From assembly GCA_905178155.1 (NCBI GenBank), contig CAJINV010000001.1, positions 13,363,713 to 13,427,712 on the forward strand: a stretch of 64,000 bases of DNA. Direction: 5' to 3'. The notes under the pieces were generated by a model. The model made no database searches. It was not told the origin of the DNA and saw only the letters and a program-made list of their open reading frames with translations. Every line of letters starts with the position of its first letter. The first letter of the stretch is position 1. Positions 6,676 to 63,201 of this stretch are shown here, piece by piece. Origin of the DNA: Amoebophrya sp. A120 (taxonomy: Eukaryota > Protista > Dinoflagellata). A program made the translations under genes and the position numbers.

Positions 6676-8031
6676 TCATCTTTTGTTGAGTCGCTGCCGC
6701 TGTGCGTTCGTCAGCTTTTCGCTCTTTCTATCATTGGTAAAGAGGGGCGACGATGGCGCTCCCACATCTCGTCTCGTACCTGGCAAAAGAACATTTTTCC
6801 AGCGTGCCACTAGCCCTCGATCGCGTGTACGGATGGAGTGCGCTCCACCATGTGAGAGAATGGTGGAACGAGAGGTGTCCGCCACAGGAGAACTCGAAAC
6901 CAAACCTCCATCGGAGATGCTGGGTGGAGCTGTGTCCGCGTCATTCGCAGTTCCTTCGAATTTGTTCAAGGTCTCAAAGGCTGCTACTGGTGGTCGCGCA
7001 TCACTTCTAGTACTCTTCAGCCCGTCCTGATTTGGAGGCAGCTCTCGTGGCTCGTCCGCAACAGCACCAGCCGCAAATTCGTGTGCTCGTTCACTATTCC
7101 GACGGAGCAGGCGAAACTTCCAGAGCAGGAATTTCTGCCGCACGTCTTCCCAAGTCGAAACCGCGGATTTCCGCAAGCCCCGAAGGTCAAGGAGTGGTAG
7201 CAATTCTAGCAGCATGTTGCTGGACTGGGAAAACAACAGCATGAGACACATGTGTTCCTGCGCCATGAGCCGCTTTGCGCCCACCTGCAGGGGCACGAAG
7301 GAGATCCGCAGTATTGCGTGCGCCGGCGTTACATACTTGACGAGGTTCGCAACAAACAGCCAGGAGTAGACAAAAGAAGCCGCCTCTGCCCAGTCCTTGA
7401 GTTTGGACACCAACATGCGTCGCTGAAACTCCCGCTCTTCTTCATCCTCAATCTCGGGAAGAGCAACCGTTTCCTCTGTCGATTCGTTCGCAAATTCCAC
7501 ATGCTCCTCATCATCGCCTTCCGGGGCCTTTTCTGCTCGTGGTCCGCCAGTCAGCATTCTCTTAAGAGATCGATAGCGCATCAAAACCTCACTCCAAACC
7601 GCCTTGCGCTGCAGCGAATAGAAAACTTTCGTCCCGATGTCAAGCAGAGTTTCCACAGGAAGCAGCGTCAGCAGCAAAAACGCAACGCGTTGCGGTTTCG
7701 TCAGGTCTAATGAATTGGGTGCGTCGACGCCTTTCATCCGTAGCGAAGGGCCTTCGTCTGTTTCGCTCGGCGGTAAGGAAAGCAATTTTCTCACGAATCG
7801 CTCCCTTGCCGCCAGCGCGCGTCCGTCCGCGTGCACCAGATTTTGCAACCGCATGCCGGGTGTGGGCTTCCCACGCCACACAGTGAGATACCAGATGATA
7901 AAGCGCACAAGCGTCAGACCCCAGGTTTCATCGATCGGAGCCCGTAGCAAGTCTTGGCAGCTCCGGAATATGATGCGGGCGATGTTGGCCTCCATCTGGA
8001 GACTGTCCAGCTGCGAGGCACGAAGCACCAT
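6676..8031 (-). CDS. PEX2: Pex2-like peroxin (Pex2/Pex12 N-terminal domain), no C-terminal RING visible
   Basis: RASQLDSLQME, FIIWYLTVW..PTPGMRLQNL and KRLMAQEHM..LLFSQ...LLELLPLL match Pex2 blocks (RVxQLDA, TPGxxLQNL, RxVxFEYMNRQLxW..LLPL). ATG at 8031. Confidence 0.65.
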   Translation of the reverse strand: MVLRASQLDSLQMEANIARIIFRSCQDLLRAPIDETWGLTLVRFIIWYLTVWRGKPTPGMRLQNLVHADGRALAARERFVRKLLSLPPSETDEGPSLRMKGVDAPNSLDLTKPQRVAFLLLTLLPVETLLDIGTKVFYSLQRKAVWSEVLMRYRSLKRMLTGGPRAEKAPEGDDEEHVEFANESTEETVALPEIEDEEEREFQRRMLVSKLKDWAEAASFVYSWLFVANLVKYVTPAHAILRISFVPLQVGAKRLMAQEHMCLMLLFSQSSNMLLELLPLLDLRGLRKSAVSTWEDVRQKFLLWKFRLLRRNSERAHEFAAGAVADEPRELPPNQDGLKSTRSDARPPVAAFETLNKFEGTANDADTAPPSISDGGLVSSSPVADTSRSTILSHGGAHSIRTRDRGLVARWKNVLLPGTRRDVGAPSSPLFTNDRKSEKLTNAQRQRLNKR

Positions 8032-9271
8032 GGTTTTCAAAAAAATATTGACGTACAAATAAGTATCTTCGTTGGGGTGCTGTCCGGGTCCGAAACGATC
8101 TGCATACTAAGTGGATTTGTAGTCTTTTCGACACACTAAAACCAAGATGGAAGACACGGCGTCGACACCTGATCCAAAAAAGGATCCGAAGGACAAAAAT
8201 CGCGAATCGCAAACAACTTACTAAAGTTAGTACTTACTGCTTGAGCACATGAGATCCAATGCTGCGCCGCCGGTGCTGCGTCGATCTTCCGGGAGTAAGG
8301 TCAGAAAGCCCGAACCTGTTGTACAAAGCTGGAACAGAGGGACAGGGCGGGCGCTTAATGGCCTGCTCTAATGCCAACGAATCGGGTCTAGATGTGTTTT
8401 CTCTTTTTGCAGTTTTGTTTCGCCGCTGTCTCATGCGTCAGTTCCTTGTGCAAAAGGTCCAAATCTTTTCAGAGTCGCGATAAGGGATCTAACGCGGAGG
8501 TTTGAACTACAAAGCAAAAGACACAGCTCGCCGTCAGGGGAAAGAAAAAAAAGTCCGCTCAGTAAAAATACGGAGTAAAAACAGGTGCCTATTGTGACTA
8601 GAGGTACTTACATCGTGGGGTGCAGTTTCTACAGCTACAAGGGAGCCCGATTTCACTACAAGTTTTACTTGGGGTCGTTTTTACAAAGACGAAAAGATTC
8701 AGCTGAAGAAGATGGCTTTATCCTGAGCGCGTCTTCTGGTTTTGTTTTTGTTCGGGAAGGGTCAATAATAAATTCGAGTTCTGGAGGCCTTGGAAGGCAG
8801 TAAAAGTGTGGTATCATGTGACAGTTCTGCAAGAACTAGTTTGTCATCGTTGCAATCCACAAAGCGAAATCGTATTCATAGGTGTGTGTATAGACAAGCG
8901 CACGACGCTTGTCTTGGGAATGCACAGGATAAAGTTCGAAAAGATTTGCTGCCAGGTCGTCGCAAAGACAACCCAAATCTAGTACGCAGAGCGCATCTGA
9001 AGTGCAGCTGCAGCGTAGTACTGTAGGTGTACGAAAGACGAGATGATGAAGCTTGAGAATCAACACGATTCACTGCGTCTCCTGGCATGCAGGGCAGTAA
9101 GGACATGGAATCCGTGCTGTTGTCTAGTGTCACAAAAGTTCAAATCATGTACAGGTGCATATCTTTTACCGAGTTTCGGTATGTGAATCTTCTTCCACCG
9201 GAAGTTAGTGCGTTAGCGTTGGCGCGTCACCCCATGATTAGCACTGCATTTTGTTTCTTACTCCTGGTTCG

Positions 9272-12200
9272 CTACTTTTTCGGCTTCTTCGACTTTGGCG
9301 GTGCCACCGCGATTGCCTCGTCAATAGGCGCAGACCCGGGCGCGACCTTGGTGACGCGTGCTCTTCCTGCAGCATTGAATCCGGGATTGTTGTTTCGCTG
9401 CTTCGCTGCTACATCAGCAGACAATGCCATGCCGTTCGCTCCAAACGGATTCATGGTGTCCTGAGATGGTGGCGGGAATATGAACCCCGCAGTGCGCGTC
9501 GACGTCGCCGCGGGCGGGTACTGTGAAACGGACGCTCCGCCAGTAGCCGTTGTGCAGCTAGATATGGATTGGCTCGCATCGTCCTGGGCGGGAAAGAAGC
9601 TGCAGGAATTCGTAAATGCAACTTCTGCTCTGGTGTTCGTGGCAAGTCTTTTTCCACTCATCAAACACCCCTGCTCGGGCTCGTGCAGCTCCAAACGGCC
9701 GCGCTTCAAGTTGTTTCCCGCGGACGATGCTGCGTTGATATTGTAATTCGGATGGCAATTGCTCACCGTTGTCGTGCGCGAAAAATCGTCGTCCTGAAAA
9801 GCCAGCCGCTGCTGCAACATGGCGGTCGTGCCGGGCTGACTGTCAACATTCTTCGCGGCCGCAGCGGTTCGTGCGGAATGGATGAAGCTAGAGGATGCGC
9901 TCGAAGTAGGAGGAGCATTCGCAGCTCTACTTGGCCACCGCGTCGCGGTACTCGGATTCGGATTCCGGGTGCAGGCGGGGGACTTGAGGTTGTTGATGTT
10001 CGCACTCGCGTTCGCAAAAGAACCACCTGTGTTACTTTGCTGGTCTCCAAAGAGCCGTGGGTACTGCTTTTGCTTGGATGTCAACGCGTTGCCGGGATTA
10101 AGCAGCATGTTCTCTTCTGGATTGATCATTTGAGAAGTTGAAGTTGTGCTCGCAACTACAGTATTCGACGGAAAAGAGCAACTCGCTGGATTCGGTGCGA
10201 CGGTTTTGTGCAGGAGCTTCTTGGCCTGCTGTGTGCTCGAACCTCTCGGAGTGGTCGTCGCGCAAGAGCTCGCAGATGCAGCACCGTTCCGGGCAGCCTC
10301 CAAAATCTTGACTGTCGCGTGCACTTGCTTCGCTGCAACTGATTTTTCTAGCGGGTTCCTGATGCCGCTCGGAAGTGGTACGGGCCGGTCCGCGACCAGA
10401 TCCAGCATCCATTCCCTGTTGTGATTTGATTTGACAAATTTTTTGGTATCAGCACATTCTCGTCCACAAGTGCAAAAAGCTGAAAGCAGCAGTCCATCAA
10501 CATTATACCGAATCTTCAATAATCTTGCGGTGTCATGATCCAATTCACGGAGCGCCAGGTCGTAGGCTTCAAAGGCTTTCGTGTTCACGTCAACTGGGTA
10601 CTCTTCCTCAACCTCGGACTGCGAGACCTGGGACGGACACTGGCTATCTTCCTCGCCAAACCTGGAAAAAAAGAAATGCGGGATGATGTCACCAACAACG
10701 ACTGTTGAAACAAGTGAAACAAAACGAATTTTGGTTGACGGGTATGTGATTTGAAACTGCTCCTGGTGGAGATGATGCGACCTTTAAAGAATTCTCCTGC
10801 TCTTACCATTCGTGCTGCAGCAGCTGCTCCGCCGTCCATCGCTTCTTCGGATCGTATGCCAGGGAGTGCAGCACGATTTCGGAGATAGCCTCGACGTGAT
10901 TTCCCGCGCGCGCTCGCAAGGCCCGCCACCGGTTTTCGCACCATTTTTGATTCTTCTTACTCTTCTCGATTACTTCGGGTTCGGCCTTGCAACCCTTCCC
11001 GGCGAGCCCGTAAAGCCGTGCACGATGGTCTAGCGTACCCGCAATGGACATGGGAATCAAACTGTGCTCGTGCGAGAGCCCCACGAGTTCAAACCTAAAA
11101 ATAATTGGCAGTTCCGACGACGTGCTTTGAAACTGCAGATTTTCTGCGGCGTGCATATGATATTTGTTCGACTAAAGCACTTCATTAAGTACACTCTTGT
11201 CCTCTCCTTAATGTAGTTTTAATCAGCTACAACATGATCTTGAAGCTTCCATGATTTTCATCAGCAACATCAAGCATATTCAGTACAGCACGCATCCCAA
11301 GCCGAAGACGTCGACTTTCGCGTCGTAATCCTCGACGGCCGCAAGCATTTCCGGCGCCAGGTAGCACCGGGTACCGACCCCGCGCTTCGTGGTCATCTTG
11401 TTTACCATGCTCCGGGCCATGCCCATGTCGGCTAATACTGCTTCCCGCTTGTTCCGGTCGAAAAAAATATTTTCCCGCTTCACATCGCGATGCAGCACCT
11501 CGTGTTGGTGCATCCAATCCAAGGCGCGGAGAATTCCCGCACATATCCGGCGCACCATCGAGATTTCGTTCACTGCAAACCTGCGATCGAAGGGACAGCG
11601 AGAGATAATTGTCATGTTTGCCACTACATTGCAAATTGGGTGGACGCAGAACCTTGTATGAAGGAGAAATTCTGCGCACTAGAAGCCTCATAGATTCTAT
11701 GCGAAGAAAAAGAGAGAAAGGCCGATGCAAAATACTCGTCGAGACTGCCAGGCCGGTAGCAGGGCATTACGAGGTAGACGTAGTCGAACTTGCTCGCATC
11801 CGTCCCGAGTCTATGAAATGGAAAAACAGCTGCTTTGCGCAATGACAAGTCCGTATTACTCGTCAGTTTTGCCGTGGAATCATAATATTCCGAACTCATA
11901 TGCTGTGCAGACAGCAGTAGCGGGATATCTATGTATCTTTGTGAGCTGGAAGCGCATTAAACGAGCAGCACATGCATTTTTTTCTTTCGCTGGAACTGTA
12001 ACTGAGACGAACTTGTCAGGCACAACAAGAGTGCTTTCTTCGATCCGTACTCTGTGTAGAGATGCAGAAGCGGGGAGATGTTCGGGTGTCGCAAGTACTT
12101 GAGGAAGTGAACCTTTGTTTGTTCCAGTTCCATGTATGATGACTATCTGTAAGATGACAATCATTTTTGATCACGTCAATTACTCAGTAAAATTACGGTG

Positions 12201-12795
12201 CGTTCCCATACCATACGCAGCAGAATGAACTAAAGTACCTCGCGGAGCAGCCTCAATGTGTCTTCCCAGTCGTCCGCGCTCTTCGTTATTTTTATGCGCT
12301 TGACCGCGACGCAATCGTAGGTAGCAAGCGATGGGTTTTTCCCTCCCGGAAGGACCTGGGCCCGCGCCACCGTTCCAAAGCCGCCCTCTGCAAGAAACTC
12401 GGGTTTACTCAACATGCCCTGCGGCAGCTCGAAAACCCCGTGTTTCTGCAGGTCGTACTTTTGCATTGGCTGTGGGTTCAGCGTCTTTGGGCACAACACC
12501 CCCGTCTGAACGGCCCGTTTCACAACTTTGCGCAATGCTCCTTCGTCCAAAACATCGGAGAGCTGAGAGGAGGCTGTTTTGTTGATACAGTTTGCCGTTG
12601 GAGAAAGCAAAAACAGTTTCATCGTCTTCAGCAGCTGAAAAACAGTTCCGCAAGGCACGATCCTGGTAGTAAGACCAGGCAAATTCGAAAGAGGCAGCTG
12701 TATCATAGCTAAAGGATTTACTTGTTACCTGGTGGCATCGGCTGGGTGCTTTGCGTGTTAGCAGGCACCCCCTGGAGTCGTGCTCCGGCGACCAT
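9272..12795 (-). CDS. Ser/Thr protein kinase, CMGC/MAPK-like, multi-exon, long low-complexity C-tail
   Basis: Exons join via GT-AG: EGGFGTV, VAVKRI, RLLRE|VHFLKYLRHPNI (intron 12113-12238), VYLVMP, HRDVKRENI, DMGMAR, GTRCYLAPE, DVFGLGCVL|FEL, YDPKKRWTAEQLLQHEW|F, then in frame into ORF 9272-10588. Start exon (ATG 12795) is tentative. Confidence 0.85.
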
Positions 12796-14069
12796 TTTCT
12801 TAGTTTTGGATGCTATAGCTTTTGACGGGTCAACTTTTGTTTTGATTTCGGTACTTTACAGGTTTATGTCTTCGCGATGCATATTTGAGGCCTCAGGAGG
12901 TCGCCGCAACACAATTTGTCACGCGGCAATGACTGAGGTACAGACGAAGCAGCAACAGGCCGTGCGTATTGGTATTACTAACTTAATTTTGGGGATAAGA
13001 ACAAAAGCAGCTCCTCAACAAACACACTATGATTGATTCATGTGAAAGCACATAATTAATGTAGAATCGATGCCTTGTGGCGACCAGCATTCATCAAAAA
13101 AATCAGTTCACAAACTTGCGTACTCAAGTTCAACTACACGGAAGGCACAAACAAAAGTAGTCCGTCTGTCAACAACTTGTTGCATTAAGTAGTTTGCATT
13201 TTTATCGAGGTTGCGAGTCAGCAGTTTTGAAATAAAGAAGCATCCGCTTCTTCACCTTTGCAGCCACTTTGACAAGAATCGAGACGACAACGAACAGAGG
13301 TTCAAGACGCTTATGGAACTTCCTTTCACGAAAAACACATTTTCCAACCGTTTTGTTTGTCATCTCATCACGAAGAAGTGTATAGAATGCTCCATCTGTC
13401 TACCAACACAGCAGCTGTCGTTGACAATCAGATTTTTTTCTTGCGAAAAAAAATGAACATCAAATCGCTCCTTGTTCTATTGTGGTAAGTACTATGCCAG
13501 ACCTCAGAATGCGGGTGAACATATTTTCTTTGCTCACGGTTTCTTTGTCAATCTGCATGGCGCTTCTTCCATCACGCTTTCACGTGCTCCTTGCAAACCA
13601 ACTTCGAACCAAAGAAACGAACCACGACAACATGCACCACATACTTCATCAAAAAAGGCAAAGCAGGAGCTTGCACGAGAAAAAGCAAGACAGAAGGAAG
13701 AACTTTCCTGGATCAGTCAGAAACTCACACGCTTTGAAGACCACATCTATGCGCTCCACATTAAGGCCAGGTGAAGGGCGAGAGCTGCATCTAATTGACA
13801 CTGTTGTTTCTCGTCTTCTTGATCTTCTTTCGCGCAGACACAAACGCGCTGACTTTCTTTGGGCTTCTCTCCTGATCTTTCAAACGGTTGCGTCAACGCC
13901 TCTGCGCGCGTACAGTAGGTACGCGCTTTCTGTCGCACATCACAATAACAGGCTGGCTCTTGTTCATTTTTGTGCCGCCTCTACTCGCTAGGTTGCGAGG
14001 AACAATAGTTCGGCAATCACTAAATCGTATGCTTCGAGGTACAACCTCTGCACTAGATGTCTATGTCAT

Positions 14070-16685
14070 TTATGGTTTTGGCTTTTTTGGGGGCCTTTGG
14101 AGTATCGTCTCGTCAACCTTCTTCACACTGCGTTCGGCGTCTCTTTTGAAAACAAAGACATCCTCTCCTATGCACGGTCCTGAGCCAGCTTGGTTTGAGA
14201 TACACTCCGCAGTCCGTCGGTCGCGCGTGTCTTCGAGCGCGGCGCGCAGGACAGGAATCGCGCCGATGCGTCCTTCCCGAACGGCAAAAAACCGCGCGAA
14301 ACGAAACATTCCGGAAATAGCGGCGGAGAACATACCGAAGATTCTACCCGACATCAGATACCCTGCAGCTTCTGCGAGCGCCGCACGCGTGAAGCTGGTG
14401 ACGCCTTGCTGTTGACTGTCATCGAGACCGCCGCCCTCCGCTACGAAATGGAGAAGCGCTCCAATCTCTCCGTATCCTGGTTTCACAGCGACCTGCTGCC
14501 AAAAAGTAGCCTGCAAAAAATCCCAGGCGGGAATGCCCAAAGGCTTCCCGTCCGACAGGCTGCACACCGCCCTGGGCTGCATTTCCTGTTTCCTTGTTAT
14601 CGTCCCGTTTTTCGCGGTCGTTTCGGTCGTCACCCGCAGAGCGGGGCTGACGAAGCCCGGACCGGAGCTGAGTTCCATCCAAACGGACCGCCGGTAGTCC
14701 CAGCTCTGAAAGAGCTCGTCCAGAATGTAGCAGGTGTCCAGTGCGTGATCCGGGACGATCTGGTAGCGCCCATTTTTCCCCGTCTGCCCGGCGTTGTACT
14801 CTTTCTTCTCGAAGAGCATGTAGCCGAACCAGGAGTGGAACAGCTGCTCCAGATCGACGTCCGTCGGCCCCCGCGAGACTTTTCGGCCAGGCTCCCCCAG
14901 TAACGGACACACTTGTGCCGCGTGCGAAGTGACCACAACAGTGTGGAGTTTCGCATTGTGGTTTTTCTCAATGTACCGCTGCAGGTACCGCTCCGCACCG
15001 TAGGTCCTCTGGAAGGTTTCGCCAGGGTTACGGAAAAAGGATGTGGAGGAATCTTCGTGGCGTGGGCCCAGCGGGTAATTTTGGAACACCGCGGTCTTGA
15101 TCAGAATGTCCACACGGAAATCGTCCATGCTTTTCACCACGTCGCTAATCTGAAGATTTTTACTTTGGCTTCGATTTTTCTCAACGGGCTATGAAAACCG
15201 GTCACCAGGATCAGTTGTACTGCTACAAAGACAATGAATGAAATGAATTCATTAGCTTTAAACGAGGTAGCTCGGAGCATCAGGTTTTCTGCTACTAAGC
15301 ATGTACTCGCTGGTAATCTTCCTCTGCTCCAAAATCGTAGATAAAGCACTTCAGGCGTGTGAAATCGGGGCGAAGAATTGTGTGGATAATGGAGTCACAC
15401 GCCGTCATCGAAGGCACGCCAAGGTAGAGCATTTTTGCACGCCCCCACTCAGATAACCATTTGGCCGTGTGGTAGCCCACACCGTGCGTTGCGTCAGTGA
15501 CCAAGATATTGCGGCCCTGTAGTTGTTCGATAAATTCTTCTCGAACGATCATGCCGATTCTAAAAATCTTCTTGACATTTTCTGATTTGACAGAGAGGGA
15601 TTCCATAGTGTAACGAAAAACAACATACAACAGTACAACTTACGCCGAATTTCTGGTGCGTTTCATCGTAGGTTTCCAGAAACGCTTCTTCCAACGGCCT
15701 GTCCAGCACGGTTTGGGCAGCAAAGGTGAGCGCGATGGGTACCACTACAGCCGTCCAGTAGAGGAATCCTATGACGAACGAGCCCCGACACGCGATGTTT
15801 TTGACCGTCAGCTTTTTCTCATTGGGCACGAGGTCCTGTGGCCGCAAAAGCAACGCCTTCACGTTGTGCGTTTTGGACATGTAAATTTCCGCTTCGAGTT
15901 CGCCCTTCCACCAACAATAGCTGGAGTAGTAATTCCACATGAAGGACACAACCACGACCGCGACGATAACACCGAGAGTACCCTGTGCCGTTTTGTCGAC
16001 CGCCAGCGCATCGTCCGGGCGACCAACTTGCACGTCCCGATTCCCGAAGTAGTGCTGGACAATGGCCACGTAGTAGTCAGGTCCGCGGAGAAACACAAAA
16101 TACCCGACGGAGGCGAACAGCAACGCGAGGTGCCGGGAGAGCCAAATCAGGTCGAAAAAGCACCGGAAATGACCGTCGCCAACGAGCACGAGGAAAAACG
16201 TGAAAAACAGCGTGAACAGGAAGCCAAGCATGAAATCGCCGAACCCCTACCAAATGCAAAAATGTCTGGGTCTGGAAAAATTCACGTTTGTCATGCTTGT
16301 CTGGCGTGACTCTTAAATCTGTCATGCACGTTCCCAAGAGCTCCGTTTTTCTGTGATGCAGAGGCACAGTTTGTCATGCAGAATAGGCAACACCTAGGAG
16401 CTCAGAAACTTGTCGTGCTGAGCCAGCATTCGTAGCCTCATCATGAGACGCTACCCAGCATCACAAGTTTCCAGACCCAGACATTTTTACTTTTGATAAC
16501 CCCACACGCCAGACGAAATCCGGAGTAGCGTCCAGGACTGCCGCCGCCGCCGGCTGCCTTTTCGCCTGCGCAAGTAGGGAGTCCACCTGCTCTGGTAACG
16601 CGGAGAGCCGCTCGAGCAGCTGCTCCGACAAACCATTCAGGCTCAGCATCGGCGGCGCGCTGTTGGAACCGGTATCCAGTCCCAT
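14070..16685 (-). CDS. Multi-TM protein fused to a short-chain dehydrogenase-like Rossmann domain; interrupted by introner 16248-16498
   Basis: The first exon (MGLDTG...DFVWRVG) joins ORF 15560-16231 (several hydrophobic helices) after removal of the element. It is followed by ILVTDATHGVGYHTAKWL (TGxxxGxG-like) and VDILIKTA via a GT-AG intron into ORF 14070-15140. Confidence 0.65.
16248..16498. mobile_element. MITE-like introner element, copy 1 (251 bp, 31-bp TIR, 5-bp TSD ACCCC)
   Basis: Left TIR taccaaatgcaaaaatgtctgggtctggaaa versus right tttccagacccagacatttttacttttgata (28/31 complementary). ACCCC occurs at 16243-16247 and 16499-16503. A near-identical second copy lies at 33785-34036. 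Confidence 0.92.
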
Positions 16686-17078
16686 GCTCCGCGGCACTCG
16701 TGGCTTCCTACGAGCGACGTTGAGGCAATTGCATTTTGACTTTCGTTGATACACCGTCAACACGAGGGTGATTCAAAAGCAAATCTAGAAGTAGAAACAC
16801 ACCAGAATACGCAGCAAAAATCTTGAACGAAATCGCTCTGAAATTACTCTCCGCAAGAAAACGAGTTGCACTTACACTTACTCACGACCGGTAGCACGGT
16901 CAACAAAAGAAAAGCACAATCTATCAAAAGAAAATTTGTCAATATGCGTACAAGCCAGCTCCATCGAACAAAGCAGCGAAAGTAGTGGTGATTTGTAAGT
17001 ATTTGATTCCTTATTTTTCATTTGTTTTTTTTTTCGTGTCGCCAATTAGTTGTGAGTATGACAAGTCAACAGAGTTTT

Positions 17079-18855
17079 TCACAGTTCCAAGCTGGCCACT
17101 TGTTCTCTAACATTTTGAACTACGGCAAGGGCGGTTATTTCGTTCCTCAAAAGTTTGCCGAGCCAGTCGTACTTTTTGAAATTCTCCTCTCCTACAGAAG
17201 AAAACTCGATTTCCGCCTCAATGCCTGCGTGTTGCTGTGGCCTACTTCTACCACCCAGCGGCGTAGGCTTGCCGACGTTGTCCCTCTGATAGGCGTACGC
17301 GCACAATCCCACGGTGGCCTGCTCCTGGTGATGACTATTTGCCCCCTCCTCATGCTGCAAACGAAAGCGGAGCGAGACTTCTTTGCGCTCCGGGCCCCGG
17401 ATAGACACGCACACCTGCACGTTGTCGCGAATCAGGACGACGTCGCGGCGCTCCTTTTTGGTCGGCTCGGCGGAGTCCCGTGGCGCGATCACCGCCTCCT
17501 CCACGCTCTGCAGCACCGAGCAGTCGATATCCGGGTCGTATCCCTGTTCTGGTAGGATGGCGAACCGACTACGAATCGCTTCCAGCGGGGCCGGCAGGAT
17601 GGTCTGGTGCGGTGGCAGTTCGTGGTCACCGGGGAGGTGCTGCTGCTGCTCGAGAATAGTACCCGCATCCAGCATCTCCACGTCACCTGTGTTGTGCTCC
17701 ATACCCTGCAGCACGACGGCGCTGCTCTTTCGGCTGCCCGGTTCATTCGAGGGCTGCAGTCCGGGACTAGCGGCGGGACCGCCCTGGTCCGCTGTCTTAC
17801 GCTGCTCCAGGATCTTCCTAATGGAGGCCTGGGCCTTCTCTACCTCCAGCGTTTTCGCTTCGCCCTGCTCCTTCCATTTGGAAAGCTCCTCCGCCGCTTT
17901 GTTGCGGACATCCTGTGGTGGTACGTCATTACGAATTCGTCATTGGTACGTGGTACGTGATAGTGTATCGAATTCGTCATTGCGTCGTTTGTCGTCTAAG
18001 AACATATTTTGTTACCAGGTCAAGATTCTGTAGCGCACTCTTCACAGAGATAGAAACTTTTGTCGAGATAAATGCACTATAAAAAAATGTACCTTCTTTC
18101 CTTTCAACTGCGCCTCGAGTATCGTTCGCTGGTCGTGCTCATAGGCCATGTGGTGGAGCCGGTACAGGGTGGAGTTCGGATCCAGTCCTCGGTCCAGCAA
18201 CTCCTGCCGCTGCGGCCACTCGTCTTCCGGAATCAAATCCACCGGCGTTTCCGGGTCGGGCACCCCGGCGTGAAGGATTTGCTGCATAAACAGACCCTCC
18301 TCATACAAGTCGTTCTCGTGCTGTTTTTATGTTCGATTTTGACGACTTTGCAGAAGAAGTTGCGAGAGTGCATACAGTGTTGATAGATGTTGACCAAATT
18401 CTACATAGACTACAAAATTCGCTCCCTTTCGCTGCATCAAGTGATCAGTTCCTCAAAAAGAAAAACTCAAATTTATTCACAAATCCGAAATAAAACTGTA
18501 CCCTTCTCCTCAATTCGTGCACCGGGTCCTTTGTGGTTAGTTCTGTTTTGATGTCGTCGATTTGTTTTCGCATGAAGGAGTTTGCTTGCCGGAGCCGACT
18601 CAGCTGGAACTGGAGTTCCTCGTACTTGTCGGCAAAAGCCTCTGCCTCATCTTCCAACACGTGCTTCCCGCACAAATCTCGCAGCTCTTTCACCGCGTCC
18701 CGGGCGTGCGCCTGGGCAGAGGCGAACCGGGCGCAGAGCGTTTCCGCGTCCTCGAGCTCCTCGACTTGGAGTCGTTGCTTTAAATCCTGCTCATATTGGT
18801 CGAGCGTCATGGGCATGCCGGCGGCATTGAACTGCCCACCACCGTTGCCCCACAT
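17079..18855 (-). CDS. Multi-exon hypothetical protein with N-terminal coiled coil
   Basis: ORFs 18445-18855, 18042-18308 and 17079-17714 are joinable with GT-AG introns (HELRRR|HENDLYEEG, QLKGKK|DVRNKAAEE). Confidence 0.6.
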
Positions 18856-19859
18856 GGCTTGTTGTATATTGGTGCGTGTGGTGCTGGTGTCGTGCGTGTC
18901 TTACAAAATACGGCGGAGCACAATGTGAAATGGAATCTGTGTCATTCTTACTTTTCTGCGAGCGTGGTACTGCTACGTACTAGTTGTACATCGCTGACGA
19001 GAGGGCTGCTCCTTATTTGTAGGTTGTCCATCGTATAAAAAAAATAGAATGTTGTTGTTTTTGTCGCTGTAAAGGTAAACGAAGAGAGAAGTAAAGGAGA
19101 AGTCTTCCAGTAGTTATTCGGCGTCTTTACACGGGGGTGGAATTTTGTGGAAACCATGTTGATCTTGTCAACCCATGTTGATCTTGCGCACAGGTGGAAA
19201 TGTTATCATGATCTTCTCTGTTCAGAAGCATCTGAGTGCCAAGAGCAGGAGAAGGAGATGGATCCTCGCATATGCATCATGAATATGCAAAATCCATAGA
19301 GTCGGAGCTACGAGCAAAATCAGGATCTTCCGCGTTTTCGCGTTCGTTGGTAGATTCCTCACAACATTCAGTGAACAAACATGAGCGTCAGCAACACCAG
19401 AAATAGTGCGATGGCCTCGGAAGACAAATACTTCGTGTTGAATCTACTTGCTTCTTAACCGTCATTTCTCCGAGTCGGTGAGCTCTCGTGGCAAAAAAAA
19501 ACCGGCGCAGATGAGATAGAGATACCATGTACTTACACCACTGGAAAAAATGCTGTCTTACAAATAGAAACATAATCGTCCGGAAGAAAACGAACTAGAT
19601 GCTGTATATGGGTCGAAATGCAACTCAAGATTGATTGATACTAGTTCGAAGGGCGGGAAACAGGATCGTATGAAAATGCCATAGTACATGAATGAAAAAC
19701 TTCTTCTTATCCCTATGTGTGGTTGGTACAGATACAGATACGAACGAGGTGTGCATGATTTGGCAAGAGTCACGGCGAAGGACGAGCAGGGGAGGCATCA
19801 GCTCGTTCAATCTACCGATCCGGGTGTCGTGCAAAGCAACTCCCGTCAGTGCCAGAGTT

Positions 19860-20636
19860 TCATGCTTTTGTGTGTCTCCGGCCGGAAGACCGGGCAGAGG
19901 TCGAGTCGCTCCGGGCGCTGATCATTGCAGGTTCTTTGTGCGTCAGTGTTGTAATCGTTTCTCCGTTTTCCATGAGCTCTCGCCCCACGTGTGGTCGCAT
20001 GTCAGTTGGCATGGTGCCCCGACCTGACAGCGCGCGCATCCCGCCCAACTCTGTAAAGCGCACCTGCCGCCACTCCTGCCTGTAGATTTTTTGCGATTAC
20101 TACATCCTTGCAAATGTCGCTACGTGCCGAATTTTCATTTAAGATGAGACAGCAAAAGACGCACATAGATATATCATCGTCGTGGGATTATCCATCATAG
20201 GCTGAAGAAAACTGAATATAGAATACTCGTTCGAGTAGCATCCTCGCTCCTTCTGCACATTTTGCAACTTAGACGCGCGCTCGTAGCGTCGGTTGTGGTG
20301 GTTGATTCGGTCCCCCCGCCCTGCGATGGTGGGCCAGGAGGGCAGGCCGGCCACGCGGATGCAGTTTTGCAACCGCGGCCCGTTGTAGGCGCGCCACCGG
20401 GCCTCGTCGTTGTAGCCGAGGTGGTCCCGGTACTCCGTGCTGACGTGAAAAGCGCGGTACCGCGGAGCGTAGTCCAGTACGCGCATGTCACACCCGTCGA
20501 TCCCGCTGGTCACCGTGCGGAAATCGTGTCTGCACGGGTGCGCCGGGTGATCCCGCATCTCCTGCTTCGTAACCTCCCGACGCAGGTTCAAGTACTGCAC
20601 AGGGCTGTGCCCCGACATGTACGGAAGTTCGGCCAT
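19860..20636 (-). CDS. Hypothetical protein (2 exons)
   Basis: GC-rich coding-like ORF 20139-20636 joins an acceptor TACAG|G CAG GAG TGG leading into ORF 19860-20063. Exact donor is ambiguous. Confidence 0.55.
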
Positions 20637-22429
20637 GTTAACAGGGAAAGATGGGAAGTAGATGAAGAAAGAACAAAAACGCGAATCGACTCGAAACTCT
20701 GTTAGTGTCTGCTAGAAAGATAGTATTGAAAAAAAGTAGGGATAAACTTAATATTTTTGGGTGTTTTTTTTGGGGTTCGTTAGTTTTGGAGGCGACGAAA
20801 CGATTCGCCGTTTTCTCCTTGGCGTGAAGCCACTGTTGTTGGAAATGGAATAGTCATTTGATGTGCAAAGAAATTGTATGCAGTCTTAAAAGCAGCAGAA
20901 ATGATGTCGACAAGACGAGATAAACAACGACGACGAATCACTGGAAATTCACCATGACCGTACTCAATTGAAGCACCGAGACTTCGCCTCACAAAACCGA
21001 CACAACCAAGCGAGAGGTCGGCTATTGACAGACCTAAATGCAAACCGATATGGAAATTTAAATCAAACCGAATTCTCAATACACGCCAAGGCCAGGCCTC
21101 TACCGACTACGATGCGAGAATCACAAGTACCGAAAATGCAAGAACTAATCTATCTGGAACGAAAAGAACCGAGGTTAGAGTACTCACATACCGATGGATT
21201 TTGACAAATTCGGGAACTGTACGCGACAAAGCAAGTGGCACGGTCATTAGCGGCAGCCATCATCAGAGTATCTTTCCGGAACGCAAAAATGCTAGCCCCC
21301 TGCTGCATATTCACAATGAATATGCTGCTGCTGCTACTGCATGGAGCACGACAAGGTATTCTGTTTACCAAGCTCAGGAAATTTTTACTGAAACGGCTGC
21401 AGGTCATGTCATAGCTGGAAATCTCCGCGCGTGGGTCTGAACGAAACAAACAAAGCCCATATGGTAGATACTCATAAACCGCATATATTCCATTTTCTGG
21501 CGCATGTATTTCGCTTGCGTATATCATCACGTAGTTGTTGTATTGCTGTGAACTAGTAACATTTTTGGTTTATTCCGTAATCAAATTACTTTTTTTGGTG
21601 GTGTCACGAGTGCAAGTGCAGGACGAAAAGAAGCAAGTACACGAAAATGTAGGGTGTCACGAAAAAAAGGTGGATCACATACTTCGGAAAGTAAGTTGTA
21701 CATCAAGTAGAAGCGATGGATAACAATCGTCTAGCTACATATTTCAAACTCTCCTCTGCCACATTTATTACCACTAAATTAAAGTACACGTTACTCTGTC
21801 TTTAGCATTTGCTATGCGCAAAACGATGCAAGACCATCGGAGCGCGCGGACGCGACTCTGATAATGTGAGCCGAGTCCTGCGCTTAGACACGCCTTGGGT
21901 GGAAAATCTGTAGTGACAGCTAGACACACTATTGGTTTCATCTGCACAAGCTGTTTGATGGCACATTGTTTTTTCTCTCCCCTCAGTCACACATCCGTAC
22001 CGCTCATTAGACACTGTGGGCGTCGTTTGCAGTACTTGTTCAGGTATAGTTTGTTCTATCTCCGAGATACAACTCAGATCATGTGAGCATCATAAATTGT
22101 GATGGTGGAAAATAGTTCCAGCGAGAAGCACTGCAACTGACGACATGATAGTAATTACTAGTACTGCCCTATCTTACACTAGTTCGGCACACCAAAAGAG
22201 GTGTGCTTTCATGCGTTTTGTCAAGTCAAAAATGTCCGTACCTGTGCTAGCTCAAGATATGTGCTCGGGAAGAAACACAATAAGTAGCTGCATAGATAGG
22301 CATAGAGTGGCGCTTCTTAAAATTTACAAAGTGAGAGTGTAGGATATTCAAGCCGCTGTTCGTTTTTGTGGCGAACTTGTCGTCATTGTTGGCAATGACA
22401 TGATGATGACGATCCATGGCAGTACTGTG

Positions 22430-24492
22430 TCAGAATTGCTTTTCGGTAACTCCGGCGCCCATGATTGAAGTTGAGCTCTTGCCCGCGGTGACGGCGCCCA
22501 GCTGCGCATCGATCAGCTCTGAACCGGACCACTTCTGGTGGGTCAGCGTGCTAACCCCCTCCTTGCGCTCGGAGCGCTGGATCTGCGTCACGTATGCCAG
22601 CATCTCGTCCTCCTTGTAGGCGCGGGCGAATCGGGTAATTCCCAGCGCGTCTGAGTGAAACCCGGCCAGGGTGATGAACTGCCAGCAGAAACCCATCTTG
22701 GCCAGGGCGGAAATGTACGTACGCATCTCCTCGTCTGACAACCCAGAGGCGTCCCAGTTGAAGCTCGGACTTTGGTTGTACGCCTGTAGAAATGAAGTTA
22801 AACATGAGGAAAATCCTCATTGAATTTCCATTTGTTGTGATTCTGCTCTCGGTATGCGCAGCAATCCCGAACAAGAATATCAACGACTTGCAATGAAAAT
22901 TGTTCCTATCTATACCAGCATGAGATGCGGGAGGGTGGCAGACACGTCGGCCGCGAAATCCTTTGCCTGCTGCACGCCAGGCTTTGCGGTTTCCATCCAC
23001 ACGATGTCTGCAACTTTTCCGAAGGCCTTCGCGCGCTCGGAGCACATCTTGGTACCGCCCTGGATCTGGTAGTAACCTGGAAAAATTTTGTCCGCAGAAA
23101 TCATTATAGAGCAATGGAAAATCTTCGTTCTCATCCCCTCAATGCGACTAGAAACATAAAATCCCGTCCGTATCATGAGTTCTTGCAAGCCTCCCCGTCA
23201 CAGTACCTTCCACCACCCTCGGCGCCTCCCAATCGAAGAACGGATCCCCCGCCCCGAGTTTCTTTGCCAGCGCTTTCAAGTCCGGGAGCGAGAGCTGGTA
23301 GCACTTGCTGTCCCACTCCTTCACCTTGTTTGCATCCCCAGCGAGTTTTTCGCGGATCAGCGTCGGGTAGGTCTTCGCCTGCGCGCGCTTCATCCAGTCC
23401 TTGTCCGTACCCTTGGCCGTGGCCTCCCGCAAGGACTCCACATTCGACACCGTCGCGCCGAGGATGAAGGGGTGGTCGCGCCCGTCCACGTTGGAGTCCA
23501 GTAATGTCGCGGCGTCCGCGTCCGTGCGGGCGACGATTAGCAGTGGGCACCGCATCACGTCGGCCTGCAGCCGGGCCGCGATTACCCGCTGGCAGTGCTC
23601 CGACACGGGGACAAGTACTTTGCCGCCCATGTGCCCGCACTTTTTCGTGCCCGGCTTCTGGTCCTCGAGGTGGATCCCTGCCGCGCCATTCTCGATGAAC
23701 ATCTTGGTTAGCTTCATGACCGCCGTCAGGCCCCCGTGCCCGGTGTCCGCGTCCGCGATGATGGGCAGCATGTAGTCCACCGCCGGGTTCTTCGCGCGCC
23801 ACTCCGGCGTCTGGCGCATGCGGAACTCGAACTGCTTCCGGTCGTGAAACACCTGTGCCTTGTACAGCTGATCCACTTTGTTCGGCACCGTGTCCATGGG
23901 GTAGTCCGCGAGATCCGGGCCTGGTTCGTTGCTCGTGCTCGCGGTGGAGGAACTCTGCCAGCCGCTTACGTAGACCGAACTGAGCCCGGCCTCCGCCATC
24001 TGCACCACCTGCACCGGGTCCAGCGCCCCAAACGTGTGCGACATCTTGCCCTTCTCCCGGTGGTCGCGCAGCAGCGTGTACAGCTTCGCGGCACTGGTGG
24101 CAGAAGGGTAGTTGGGGAGTTCCTGTCGGGTACCCTGAAACCGGGTCACTTCCGCGGGACCAAACCTGGTTATTAGAAGAGCTGGGATTTCGTATCTTTA
24201 CTTTTAATGGCGACAACTGGGGTGATGCGCTTGTAGTTGCGAACAAAACTACAGAAAAGTTCATGACTAGTATGCATCAATTCCGCGGTCCAATTTCCAT
24301 CACTAACTGTAACTACCCACCAAGTAATGCAAATGTAAGAAAGTAGTACGGTCTTTCCACGTATTGGAAGCGTTTGGATGACATGAAGGCCTCATTCTTC
24401 GCTTTTCGCTGTTCGAAAAAGGCCATCTCCGAGTCGCCCGACTTCCCCGCATTGACATGCGAGGCGATTGTGGCCGCACGGTTTTCTGCCAT
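22430..24492 (-). CDS. ICL: Isocitrate lyase (4 exons)
   Basis: Motifs [77 protein letters not shown] introns at 24166-24349, 23077-23206 and 22784-22915 restore one frame. Confidence 0.97.
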
Positions 24493-27071: not shown

Positions 27072-28451
27072 CTAACTGTGCACTGTTCTTGCGAAAATTG
27101 CCTCGAACTTTTGCTGCACTAGAGAACTGAGTTTCTCAGTATCAACTTCTACATCAGCACTTTCCCCAACGTCGAAAACCGGCGGTAGCAGCCCCCGCTC
27201 TTTCAACACTTCATGGTTCCAGAAGCGGTTCCTGTACCTCTCCCCACTATCGCACAACACCGTGCAAATCACCGCATTTTCTGGTAGTTGTGCGGCGGCG
27301 TGCAAACAGGCCACGAGGTGCGCGCCCGAACTGCTCCCGCAGAAATGGTTCTCGACGTATCGCAGGTAGTGGCAGAGCAAGACCGCGTCTTCGTCGGACA
27401 CCGAGACCGCATCGTCCACGAACGGTAATGCCTTCTGAAAGTTCTTGGTGATGCGATTCAGCCCAAAGCCCTCCATGATGGTGTCGTCTATCCTTTGCTG
27501 CCGGTGGCCCTCCCTCTCCACCTCTGGGTTGTAGCACAGATTCGTCTGCACTTTGAATTGCAGTGAGCTGCCCGGGGGGTCGGCGAGTATGACTTTTGTT
27601 TGGTTGTTGCTCTGCTCCTTAAAATATCTGCCACAGCCCGCAATGGTCCCTCCAGTGCCCGCGGACATGACGAAGGCGTCGAAAGGAATGGCGATCCGAT
27701 TTTCATCTCTCTCTCGTCGCACCAAATTTTTCGCCTGCTCCCAGATTTCTGGCCCGGTCTCTGTGTAATGGTCGCGCCAATTCACTTCGTTCTCGAACTG
27801 ATCGCAAAAGTAGGCCCCCGCTTTTTTGCACGCCCGCATGCAGACTTGCGAATACTGCTCCGGACTGGAATAGCTGGTCGGCTTGCACAAGTGCACCGTG
27901 GCGTTGTACTGTCTCATCAAGTTCAGCTTCTCTTTCTCGCAGTCATCCGGTACGTACAGGTGACATTCGAGGTTTTTCTCGTGACACAGCTTCGCTAGTG
28001 AAACCCCCGTGCTGCCAGAAGTACCCTCGTACAAACTTGTCTTCCCTTTGCGCAAGCACTCCGCGACCAGACGATTGGCGACCCGATCTTTCAGGGACTC
28101 ACCTGGGTTCTCGTACTCGCACTTCGCAAAAATGCGTCGACCGGTCAGGGCGGAAAGGTGTGAGAGCTCGACAAGAGACGTCTGAAATTCTTTTACTGGT
28201 CGCTCCTTGCGGTCTTCAGGTTTTTCATCGTTCCGATCGAGTACGTCGCCCTGGGTGACATGATCATCTTCCGACGTCCTGGTTCGGGTTGTAGGAGAAG
28301 AATCCCCGCCTTTAATATTTCGTCGACTCTCCAGCGCGAGTACAAGCTCTGCACGATTGACAAGAAAGTCCAGCAACACTGCAATGGCGACGGTAGTCAA
28401 CAAGAGAGTCGAGTACGCTCCCGAATCCAGAATGTCAAGAACCATGTTCAT
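27072..28451 (-). CDS. Cysteine synthase-like PLP enzyme with N-terminal hydrophobic anchor
   Basis: AKCEYENPGESLKDR (PLP Lys), EGTSGSTG, DQFEN, HYTETGPEIWEQ, SAGTGGTIAG, DTIMEGFGLNRIT, CDSGERY. Intronless, 459 aa. Confidence 0.93.
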   Translation of the reverse strand: MNMVLDILDSGAYSTLLLTTVAIAVLLDFLVNRAELVLALESRRNIKGGDSSPTTRTRTSEDDHVTQGDVLDRNDEKPEDRKERPVKEFQTSLVELSHLSALTGRRIFAKCEYENPGESLKDRVANRLVAECLRKGKTSLYEGTSGSTGVSLAKLCHEKNLECHLYVPDDCEKEKLNLMRQYNATVHLCKPTSYSSPEQYSQVCMRACKKAGAYFCDQFENEVNWRDHYTETGPEIWEQAKNLVRRERDENRIAIPFDAFVMSAGTGGTIAGCGRYFKEQSNNQTKVILADPPGSSLQFKVQTNLCYNPEVEREGHRQQRIDDTIMEGFGLNRITKNFQKALPFVDDAVSVSDEDAVLLCHYLRYVENHFCGSSSGAHLVACLHAAAQLPENAVICTVLCDSGERYRNRFWNHEVLKERGLLPPVFDVGESADVEVDTEKLSSLVQQKFEAIFARTVHS

Positions 28452-29537
28452 TCTGAAAGTTTACATAATTACGCCAGCCTTTCTTGTTCTAGTGATTGTT
28501 AAGGTTTCAAAAAGGTCAGCCACTACGGAACAAGTCTAGGGGGGGCTTGCAAAACAGTGGGCGGGGCAGAACCTGAGTCAATCATTCAGACACAGTGCCG
28601 CATCACTTTTAGAGCCTATGGGATTTTGGTCGAGATCAACCATCGATGTGTCGTGTGTATGATCAATCTCTTCTTTTCGCTCTATTTGATCAGCACGTGA
28701 TCCCAGACACGGTCTTTTTTTTGACACGGTTACGATCGCTTTTTCGAACAAGGCATAGCTATTTTCAAGATCATCACCTGGTAGTAAAGTTTTACGCTTT
28801 TGTCTACAAAATCCGCTTGCCTGACGTGAAACGATTTCATCTTCACATTGATCTAGAATTGGTAACGGATACTGGTGTTCACACTGATGATCCACTTTTC
28901 CTACAGAGAAAATCACGAAGCTTGTGGCGCTTTAGTCCCTGTAACCAACAGATGAAGACTATCGCCAATTGCAATTTGATTTTGAAACGAAATTCAAACC
29001 CCATTACACTCACATCTCCGCCTCCAAATAAGTCTTGCAGCCAAAAGCCACATGCACGGTTGCATTCACTGGTTATTCACATGACAACAGACAAAGTCTG
29101 GGTACAAGGAGCAGGTGCTGATACATTTACATTAATTTCGCTCTTGACGCAGGCGTCGTCTAGATGATTGTACACAACGACAACCGGTAAAACGAAAATC
29201 ATGACGATAGGTGCATTTTGAACCTAACTATTTCTGGAAAAAAATCATACACAAGTTCAGTGGCCAAATTTTGATTTCATTTTCAAAGCAATTTGTCTTT
29301 CTGAAAAAACAAACCACCACATTGGTACACATTTCGACAAATAGGTTTTAGCTTCGAAAGCTAGCAATAGAATTGGAAGATGATGACATTTGACTTCAGT
29401 CAAAAAACGCCAGTACAACGCAATGCGAAGGGCAATAGCCTGTCACTGTAATTCGTTGATACATGATACTGCACTGGTGCATTTGGTGTCCGTTGTTTAC
29501 ATTGCCGGCATGCACAGCGCCAGGGCCACCATGACGA

Positions 29538-33220: not shown

Positions 33221-35897
33221 TCACCTCAAAATGCACGGGGGAATGCGCGGCGCAGGTCGCTGCTTTCGTACCGTAGTGCCAAACGTCGTTCTGCCGTGGA
33301 ATTCCTTGCACCCCGTCCCTGGCAACAACTGCTGCAGCTGCTTCGCCCTGCTCTGCGCCTTCCAGAAGAGTCCGACGTTCGACATCGCGCTCTCGTGACT
33401 TTCCCGCACGACACTTGGTACACTTCTAACCTCGTCCGCAAAGGGAACCCCGTGCTCTTCGCGCTCATCCAACAGTAATGCCGGTCTCGCTGTCGAGGGG
33501 GCGGTGGTAGAGGTGTAGGGCGAGGAGGTGCGCCCAGGGAAGGGTGAGGCCGTTGTACGGTCGAAGCTGCGCTCGGAATGGTCTGTCGGTCTTTTACCCT
33601 TGTTTTCTTGTTCAACAATCGCCGCAGCTGATGCTGTTGCAGCTGCGGTCGATGGCAATAGTTCCACTCTTTGCTGGCCTGGCTGCACCGTCGCCTCAAG
33701 ACGTCGACCGTTCGCTGCCGACTCTGTTACTGTTTCGGCGGTTAAAAGGGTCTCATTGGCGCCATTATGTTCGACGCAATTGGATATCAAATGTAAAAAT
33801 GTCTGGCTCTGGAAGAATTCATGTTTGTCATGCTTGTCTGGCATGACTCTTAAATCTGTCACGCACGCTACCCAAGAGCTCCGCTTTTCTGTGATGCAGA
33901 AGCGCAGTTTGTCATGCAGAATAGGCAACACCTAGGAGCTCAGACACTTGTCATGCTGAGCCAGCATCTGTAGCCTCATCATGAGACGCCACCCAGCATC
34001 ACAAGTTTCCAGACCCAGACATTTTTACATTTGGTATTGGACGAGTTCTTACTATGTGCTACTTCCGGTAGTTCCTTTTCGGGCGTGGATACTGCACCAA
34101 TGAGCAAGGAACCGTCAAAGCCACCTGCCGGACTGACGACCAAAGAGGACTCGTCGACCTGCATTTGCACGTCGCCTTGCGGCTCTTGCATGTAGTCGTA
34201 TGCAGGTCCTCCTCCTGGATTTCCGCCTTCTTGCGACGGGAGATGGGCAGCTCCCAGATTTCGATGCCCCTGAGCTTGTGCGGCGTAAGAGAGGCATTCG
34301 AAAAGCTGCGACATTGGTGATGACGACACCGACTGCGTCGTAGCGACTGCGTGCATTGCAGGAAAGCGCATCTGATCGTCAGGAAAGGACTGAAGGGCGT
34401 CGTGTTGGTGGTCACCTTGCGCCGCCGCTTCCGCGGAGAACAAGTTCCGCCCCTTCATCTCTGTGTGCAGAAACTCACTCGTTTCGCGTGCAGGAGGTGC
34501 CTGTATTTCAACGCCCGTCGGCATATTGCTTACAGAACCCATTCCTCCTCCGTATTTCTGCGCTATGAGCTCCAGAGAAAGCGTCGAACGCGTTTTCTTC
34601 CACGCGGAAAAACAGCGGTGCAGCAGCTTGAGGCTCTCCCAGGCCCGCTCTTTTGCAGCAGCGGCCCGTGCTAACATGTCCTCGCGCTCCCTCGTCAAAA
34701 TCAGTCGCGCAGCACCACGACGAAGGGAGTCTTGGTGCTGCCTGTAAGCGTCCCTTTGGCGCGCTTTTTTGCTGACGCGGTTTACTGCCCAGGACCTGTA
34801 TTATTCCACAAAAAAGCGATCGCGCTGAAATCAATTGCTCAGCCTGTCAAGAGACGGATTTCAACGTTGTTCCATATCACGCATAGTTAACTGCAGTACT
34901 ACGGAACCAATATATTCATCCACCATTACCTCCAATTCGTGAGGAGTGGCGGAACGACCTTGCCAAGTCTGAATTCTTTCGCCACGATTCCTGCACACGT
35001 CAAGGTTTTCCGCTCGCTCGCACGCTCTAGCCACCGTCGGAGCTTGAAGCGCAGCCGGCATTGAAGGACGTGCTGGGATAAATCAGTTCGTTTGGAAGTG
35101 CGAAAAGAACTTGCTGATTCTATTGCTAATCTGATACATAGTGACTTGCAGAATTCAGTCGAAAGAATGAAAAGTTTGAATTTCAAATTCACCACGAGAA
35201 CTCTCGTGAAAAAATCAAATCCTTCTACCTGCCGTGCAAGATCCCCCATCAACCTCTTACGCTTGCCGGCAATCGCGAGCTCGATCCAGGCTCGGATGCA
35301 GGTCTTTTCGATTCTGCATTTCGCAAACAGATTCGCCCTGCCGCGAAGGCGGCGCTCCTCCTGGTTCCGTAGTGCGTGACGCCGTAAGCTTCCGCAGGCA
35401 TTCTTCATGCGTCGCGTCTGGATGACGCTGGTTGCTCCATACTGTCGCTGCCGGAGGGCGTGTAGACAGTGAAAAGCGCGCCATCCCTGTCGCAGTATCT
35501 TTCTCCGCTCGGCAAGCTCGTGCCACCTGAGTATCGATAGCGCAATAAGTAATGAGGAAGATCAACATGTGAGCACAATGCAGCCTTCGACATAATATTT
35601 CCTCGCAAGTGCGAGCACTTTTTCTCATCACATGCGCGTCAGTGTAGCAGGAGCAGCTTACCGCCTCCACAAGCCAGCCTTCTGTAGCGCTTGGACCTTC
35701 GTAGCTTTTTGCGCGTAGCCTTCTTTCTGGTGGCTGCAAAAGTCCTTCCAATGCGCAAAAAAACGGCCTGCGACTTCCTGCTCAAGGTTCGCGCGCAAGG
35801 ATCGAATTACCCTACACGCAATCCGCTTCACCCAAAATCGCAACGCACGCACGTTGAGCTCATCCATGTTCGTTCGGTCTTTATCTGGCAAGAACCG
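33221..35897 (-). CDS. Multi-exon protein with Sfi1-like Trp-terminated repeats; interrupted by introner 33785-34036
   Basis: GT-AG-joined exons give recurrent units ending in F/LxxW (AGRFFAHWK, GLWRRWHE, TCIRAWIE, FKLRRWLE, LLTNWRSW, LLHRCFSAWKK). The frame continues across the element (KNSSN|CVEHNGANE). Confidence 0.6.
33785..34036. mobile_element. MITE-like introner element, copy 2 (252 bp, 31-bp TIR, 5-bp TSD TTGGA)
   Basis: Left tatcaaatgtaaaaatgtctggctctggaag versus right tttccagacccagacatttttacatttggta (28/31). TTGGA occurs at 33780-33784 and 34037-34041. Colinear with copy 1. Confidence 0.92.
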
Positions 35898-36336
35898 CTA
35901 CAGACTCAATAGGATGTTCTACAACTTCGCAACATATTCATTGCAAGTCAGTCTTGAGGACTTTTGAATCAATGGAGACGAAACTCAAAAAACGCAGCTT
36001 CATCACACAGTACCGCGAAGACTAGTTGAAGTTGAATCTCAGAAAATCGTGTTGCGGAAATTGGCTTCATCATTTGCTCTCGGACGAATCGCGTTTGCAT
36101 CTCGACACTGATCTGCTTGTGTGGCCTTCATGGTCCTTTCTTCATTCGCCTCTCTCCGAAAAAAAGTCATCATTTGCTTCTGATTGGCGCCATGATCGAT
36201 CCATGTGAACACAATTGTCGTTTCCTTTTGTCCAGCACAGGCACCGGCAAAGCATTTCAATCACATCGCAACAGGTTTTTAATTCTACTCGTCCCTTGTT
36301 TCTAAACAAAATAATGCACTTCATCAATCTGAACTT

Positions 36337-63045: not shown

Positions 63046-63201
63046 TGTTTTCGGTGGTGTGGTGTGGTTGGAGTCGTGTCTTTCTGTCTCTTTGACTTTA
63101 AGTAGCGAAAAGCTGAAGGAGGTGAGCTACACTCCTAAGATTGTCGCTCGTGCTATTGTGTGCGCGCGCGTGTGTTTGGTGATTATGCGGGCAGGCCGGT
63201 C

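Follow-up and report, generated by a model that had tools for sequence, protein, structure and literature searches.

Introner copy 1, a short transposon in a coding exon of Amoebophrya sp. A120, which parasitises algae, and a second copy of the same family in the window (the whole 64-kb stretch of DNA analysed here) are both present in DNA and exactly absent from RNA contigs. We consider it likely (probability about 0.8) that a short element with inverted ends inserted into the exon and that its exact absence from RNA stems from an adapted splicing machinery that recognises the conserved ends, probably helped by the stem they form, instead of GT and AG. The element class is published and the copy 1 junction is already part of the public gene model, so this is not a discovery, and nothing shown here is categorically new. 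The copies serve as a worked example of an open question, namely how Amoebophrya removes introns without GT-AG ends, of which it has tens of thousands.

Host gene and anatomy of introner copy 1

13783..15149, minus strand: host gene exon 4 and 3' UTR, with the stop at about 14070
15150..15306, minus strand: canonical GT..AG intron, 157 nt
15307..15516, minus strand: host gene exon 3, with a Rossmann/SDR-like motif by eye and no Pfam match
15517..15643, minus strand: canonical GT..AG intron, 127 nt
15644..16241, minus strand: host gene exon 2, hydrophobic, a predicted membrane region
16242..16503, minus strand: span containing the 256-nt segment absent from RNA, the true cut being ambiguous within it
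16243..16247, unstranded: target-site duplication, left copy, 5 nt (ACCCC)
16248..16498, unstranded: introner copy 1, a non-autonomous terminal-inverted-repeat (TIR) element of 251 bp without a coding frame
16248..16278, unstranded: inverted repeat arm, the intron 3' end on the mRNA strand
16289..16465, unstranded: 8-nt internal motif in six copies (five plus, one minus), at most one mismatch
16461..16463, minus strand: in-frame TGA, which with the element retained would limit the protein to 74 residues
16468..16498, unstranded: inverted repeat arm, the intron 5' end on the mRNA strand, with TAT, 7 nt and an A-run
16499..16503, unstranded: target-site duplication, right copy, 5 nt (ACCCC)
16498..16770, minus strand: host gene exon 1, seen in RNA, with the ATG at 16685 and a 3' edge that is ambiguous within the duplication

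The arms of copy 1 are 31 nt each and 90% complementary. The original prediction, made from this DNA alone, placed a 251-bp TIR element with an ACCCC duplication and an in-frame stop in a coding exon, and its coordinates were confirmed, the stop being the TGA at 16461-16463. If nothing is removed, the reading frame stops after 74 codons. Removal of the 254 nt between the available GT..AG pair (16500-16247) breaks the frame, as had been stated, with a stop after 94 codons, and deletion of 256 nt restores it as predicted, giving a frame of 691 aa. Ten GT/GC..AG pairs nearby keep the frame, and the length of none equals the skip in the RNA contig; the 254-nt pair and an in-frame GT..AG pair at 16505-16247 (259 nt) are both unused.

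Because a terminal A lengthens the repeat at copy 1 to 6 nt, the 256-nt segment can be placed in seven equivalent registers, from 16242-16497 to 16248-16503. Their ends are AT..TT, TA..GT, TT..GG, GT..GG, GG..GG, GG..AG and GG..TA, with GT..AG in none, and copy 1 thus does not have the GT/GC..AG ends expected of a U2 spliceosomal intron. The GG..AG and GT..GG registers first proposed both exist within this larger set, but they appear incidental, given that copy 2 (below) has neither dinucleotide.

When exon 2 was compared with NCBI proteins, one match among 3,267 candidates was found, a 691-aa Amoebophrya sp. A120 protein with 100% identity. This protein is exactly rebuilt from the four exons in the window and carries the predicted element junction. 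Since similar RNA data may underlie this gene model, it should be taken as prior annotation more than as a separate proof. At E ≤ 0.001 the host protein has nine protein matches, and no Pfam domain is matched at E ≤ 1. The best non-self match is a full-length orthologue in Amoebophrya AT5.2 (32% identity over 706 columns), the alignment of which begins at the junction residue. Neither retention of the insert nor decay of the gene, the two outcomes named as contrary to the original prediction, was observed: the gene is spliced, and another Amoebophrya has this orthologue.

The six copies of the 8-nt motif are possibly transposase-binding sites. No transposase was found for the element, its end motif was not matched in viral contigs, and the 64-kb window holds no element besides copies 1 and 2 with the same end motif and a duplication.

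Copies 1 and 2 in DNA and in RNA

RNA evidence came from contigs of four runs of one sample (X1-X4). These runs were first guessed to be RNA and then judged to be spliced from their skipped canonical introns; the library type is not on record, and such cDNA-derived contigs drop minor forms. Run X1 behaves as spliced RNA in that introns are skipped, including five at 11092-12729; its depth at 19016-21000 is zero. In X1 record 2 (2,448 nt), positions 16498-16770 (record 1-273) join positions 15643-16241 (record 274-872) with 0 mismatches, 0 gaps and no extra letter, as read from the table of aligned pieces, the joint itself lying outside the best 15 of the 31 joints. This contig skips exactly 256 nt, the length of the element with one copy of its duplication, which agrees with the predicted removal from mRNA, and it also skips both GT..AG introns of the gene. 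The RNA evidence for copy 1 is this one contig from one run, and two raw RNA-read runs (X7 and X8) have 2 and 0 reads, respectively, over 11000-21000.

33785..34036, unstranded: introner copy 2, 252 bp, with its duplication at 33780-33784 and 34037-34041

Copy 2 is 90-94% identical to copy 1 and has a different 5-nt duplication. In all four runs (X1-X4, one sample) exactly 257 nt are skipped, and in X1-X3 the depth of this skip equals that of three GT..AG introns in the same gene. Neither GT nor AG occurs in any of the seven registers of copy 2, and since it is nevertheless removed exactly, removal does not require the GG..AG and GT..GG half-sites of copy 1.

Presence in DNA was seen in run X5, which is DNA-like in that its depth is flat (43.6) and none of the five neighbouring introns is skipped. 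X5 contigs covering 11000-16272 and 16471-21000 enter copy 1 and continue unbroken for 25-28 nt past the duplications. Element depth in X5 is 1.9e5-3.1e5 against 43.6, or about 950 times single copy inside the element and far more at its ends, values that are rough because they sum over contigs. It is extremely improbable that the element had been excised from DNA, or that an empty allele was present, in the cells from which the RNA came, or that the gene is simply knocked out. Ends bounded by TA are reminiscent of programmed DNA elimination, and 16 of the 31 joints, of lower depth, lie outside the best 15. However, DNA-like contigs extend across each border into the element with the depth of a single copy, no empty-site joint is present among the best 15 of the 31 joints, both copies behave alike, and the host gene of copy 1 is full length and expressed.

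All of the RNA evidence being cDNA-derived contigs from libraries of unrecorded type, reverse transcriptase might have jumped the hairpin between the direct repeats while the mRNA kept the element, and a stem inside direct repeats is a textbook substrate for such skipping in the available text of PMC13149111. This explanation is very improbable. The main contig, unbroken and at the depth of canonical joints, has the skip in four of four runs for copy 2 and in X1 for copy 1; retention would leave a protein of 74 residues, yet the gene is intact and has an orthologue; and relatives of the element fall in coding frames at the rate seen for random sites.

Elsewhere in the family, some RNA contigs of X1 and X4 pass from other flanks into family members, so that transcripts, unspliced precursors or UTRs keep some of the copies. 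Other family members in X5 lie end to start only 24-35 nt apart, which suggests micro-exons between neighbouring introners. On the minus strand at 11808-12050, one X1 contig skips 243 nt with GT..CT ends; an AG is located 3 nt inward from the 3' end, either acceptor gives the same frame, and no inverted repeat was seen, so this is a possible non-canonical acceptor outside the introners. The 12 resolved introns shown by RNA at 11000-21000 and 31000-38000 comprise nine GT..AG introns, this GT..CT intron and the two introners, a non-canonical share far below the 65% given genome-wide for A120 in the accessible part of PMC7789003.

Metagenomic relatives and a probable signal in the ends

A search with the 20-nt end motif returned at least 151 metagenome loci, and 78 of the best 80 share one assembly prefix. 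Among the matches listed are 124 distinct complete relatives of 165-345 nt, cut-off, longer and degenerate ones having been left out; all counts of relatives below refer to these matches. A codon model trained on the genes of the window, and not RNA, supplied their strand and intron status; its strand calls were right in 487 of 490 held-out genes. Perfect 5-nt duplications flank 101 of the 124 relatives (90 distinct), and 11 have a duplication with one mismatch (L018, L043, L044, L055, L073, L097, L125, L129, L131, L139 and L149). Ends of the form TAT..ATA are found in 108 of the 124, and position 3 is T in 198 of 202 ends. A 6-nt duplication starting with A was rejected as the target, none of the 124 relatives having a 6-nt duplication outside TA ends; the sixth repeat base of copy 1 is at chance level, a similar extension occurring in 21 of 49 relatives against about 44% expected.

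Removed lengths in the relatives span all three frames (42, 25 and 34). We called the phases of both flanks independently for the 101 relatives with perfect duplications, of which those with sufficiently long flanks could be scored. Removing the element plus 5 nt restored phase in 71 of 89 with 60-nt flanks, 45 of 71 with 90-nt flanks and 47 of 71 with 120-nt flanks. In the controls at 90 nt, phase agreed in 523 of 600 tests within genes, at 349 of 600 random sites left untouched and in 193 of 600 random deletions. Because any insertion returns its target once the element and its duplication are removed, this test indicates tolerance in coding DNA and not splicing. In a set of 41 relatives of confident strand together with copies 1 and 2, pairs of related elements were in the same orientation 116 times and in opposite orientation 133 times, and 9 of the 12 relatives that align to copy 1 are in the opposite orientation. 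The elements would thus occur in both orientations in the genes inferred by the codon model.

Flank matches to an empty site were found at none of the at least 151 loci, the only colinearity being that at the protein level with the AT5.2 orthologue. Twelve loci have one end motif, no partner within about 600 nt and at least 500 nt inside, with open frames of 70-206 codons (L001, L015, L024, L039, L040, L053, L057, L061, L064, L065, L078 and L079); they are candidates for longer or autonomous elements.

Splice dinucleotides are available to many relatives. An ordinary, relaxed spliceosome might use the half-canonical GG..AG or GT..GG offered by the copy 1 duplication, both of which exist there; 31 of 38 in-frame relatives have GT or AG in at least one register, and GT-NN and NN-AG are among the commonest non-canonical classes in A120 in the portion of PMC7789003 at hand. 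A full GT/GC..AG register is present in only 4 of the 38, and neither dinucleotide in 7. Copy 2, which has neither and is removed exactly, these seven relatives and the disregard of both the 254-nt and the 259-nt GT..AG pairs at copy 1 make this explanation quite improbable, and a need for local half-sites is ruled out by the differing duplications of the two copies. We graded it as weak, together with reverse-transcriptase skipping and DNA excision or knockout.

We next consider the stem, which had been proposed to guide removal. The mRNA strand of copy 1 folds end to end (z = −5.02, with 0 of 200 shuffles as stable), and the minimum free energies (MFE) of the two copies are −100 and −111, compared with −22 to −38 for nine canonical introns. 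The copy 1 stem has two U.G mismatches and one A.A, and that of copy 2 has one C.A. The ends of the relatives are near-invariant at positions 1-3, 6, 8, 9 and 11-13. At positions 4, 5 and 7, the two ends agree in 64, 71 and 40 of 101 relatives against 67, 74 and 44 when shuffled, that is, without covariation. Position 10 does covary (62 of 101 against 49 expected, p 0.006), which favours some pairing. On the inferred mRNA strand, A.C mismatches exceed G.U (22:9 in 41 elements and 35:14 in 58 elements), so that the G.U test, which was run to support stem selection, came out opposite to selection for an RNA stem. The absence of covariation at positions 4, 5 and 7 and the excess of A.C make it unlikely that pairing alone is the signal. 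The stem proposed as a guide forms in silico, and its guiding role is supported only in part.

The two ends of an element might also be read differently. Among the 112 relatives with at most one duplication mismatch, 63, 84 and 43 passed three overlapping strand cut-offs, and a degenerate end of the TATG type lay at the 3' rather than the 5' end in ratios of 17:6, 20:8 and 11:3. Counted per element, the asymmetry was 27:10, 34:13 and 16:7 (p 0.008, 0.003 and 0.09). That the degenerate end tends to be 3' hints that the end sequence is read directionally, as a post hoc lead from codon-model strands in another population, outside RNA. This asymmetry and the imperfect duplications (11 of 124) are handles with which to map the cut that published work leaves open.

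Route of removal and known systems

Copy 1 is a member of the published A120 introner class, as the original prediction correctly stated, and the host protein is that of A120. According to the available text of Farhat et al. 2021 (PMC7789003), A120 introner elements have inverted repeats at their ends, direct repeats of 3-5 nt over their borders and the motif TAT, 7 nt and at least three A; they average 240 nt, form repeated families, lack a transposase and are left with their border position open. That text counts 29,850 repeated introns in A120, and 1,954 families. The copies here share with them RNA-supported introns without GT-AG, paired inverted ends, a 5-nt border repeat and repetition in the genome. 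The mRNA 5' end of copy 1 fits the motif exactly, whereas its other end has TAC. They differ in that the paper's motifs, in the text seen, are 8-20 nt against arms of 31 nt here, and its commonest duplication is 4 nt (5 nt in the legend of an example figure) against 5 nt here. Gozashti et al. 2025 (PMC12130899), in the part available, describe diverse TIR DNA-transposon introners in A120, some with integrase-like frames, whereas copy 1 has no coding frame. The copies also resemble miniature inverted-repeat transposable elements (MITEs), which are short, TIR-bounded, high in copy number and without coding capacity, with a target-site duplication (TSD) of constant length and variable sequence; ordinary MITEs, however, disrupt exons, whereas the elements here are absent from RNA.

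Insertion would have been by a cut-and-paste transposase supplied in trans, with a 5-nt stagger, and removal would occur at the RNA level, by a cut in a constant position with respect to the inverted repeat. Read inward, the two ends have the same sequence, so the element could serve as an intron whichever way it points and at almost any 5-mer. The odds are about even that a modified U2-type spliceosome is involved and that the intron starts at the first base of the element (register TA..GT in copy 1), the 3' cut then falling directly behind the second duplication. A more specific form, in which a directional machinery without GT/AG takes the 5' terminal motif as donor and locates the second cut by its distance over the stem, so that exactly one 5-nt duplication is skipped, is put forward tentatively and is rather doubtful. 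If true, the palindromic ends would let every insertion work as an intron, whatever its orientation or site.

Removal might alternatively be exact but independent of the spliceosome, with an endonuclease making staggered cuts at the stem base across the duplications and a ligase sealing the exons together, in the manner of tRNA or IRE1 splicing. The same is suspected for the nonconventional introns of euglenids, and only the enzyme step would change. The very stable end-to-end stem (MFE −100 and −111), the dispensability of splice dinucleotides and the suitability of either orientation are consistent with such a route, and euglenid TIR/TSD introns give circles, not lariats, in the accessible text of PMC11282704. 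Nevertheless, the ends do not covary at positions 4, 5 and 7, A.C exceeds G.U (22:9 and 35:14), and A120 has nearly all spliceosomal proteins as far as the available text goes (PMC7789003), and we regard this route as unlikely. An adapted spliceosome that reads the 5' terminal motif, with the stem joining the ends, is favoured over it, at about even odds.

An analogous case suggests that a spliceosome can adapt to transposon introns. Introns of Fritillaria borealis are likewise MITE-derived, bear a TIR and a TSD and are removed by an adapted spliceosome, as reported in the available parts of PMC11282704 and PMC13326754; they differ in having AG-AC/AG-AT ends and a duplicated U2AF, whereas no fixed dinucleotide can be read here. 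Euglenid nonconventional introns share an end-pairing stem, TSD-like repeats and a removal route that the text of PMC11282704 at hand does not settle, but that text gives them short paired ends, a wide length range and circular products, whereas the introns here are known from contigs alone. U1 snRNA went undetected in A25 and A120 in the part of PMC7789003 available and was found in a relative with canonical introns in that of PMC12005148. Titles and the starts of abstracts disclosed neither experiments on how Amoebophrya removes these introns nor a report of 5'/3' end asymmetry, either of which subscription papers, supplements or figures may hold.

As to the surroundings of the two copies, 15 of the 17 frames of at least 300 codons in the window lie on one strand. 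The following minus-strand regions have database matches.

6676-8106, minus strand: Pex2/Pex12 match
23148-24197, minus strand: isocitrate lyase match
27072-28460, minus strand: PALP enzyme match
38111-40210, minus strand: DHHC palmitoyltransferase match
43095-48524, minus strand: Avl9/DENN-MORN match

A minus-strand frame of 1,215 codons at 59479-63126 has a D5_N (primase-like) match (E 1.5e-07) and lies in a GC-rich stretch adjoining tandem repeats at 57903-58150 and 63503-64000; this region is possibly a mobile or virus-like element.
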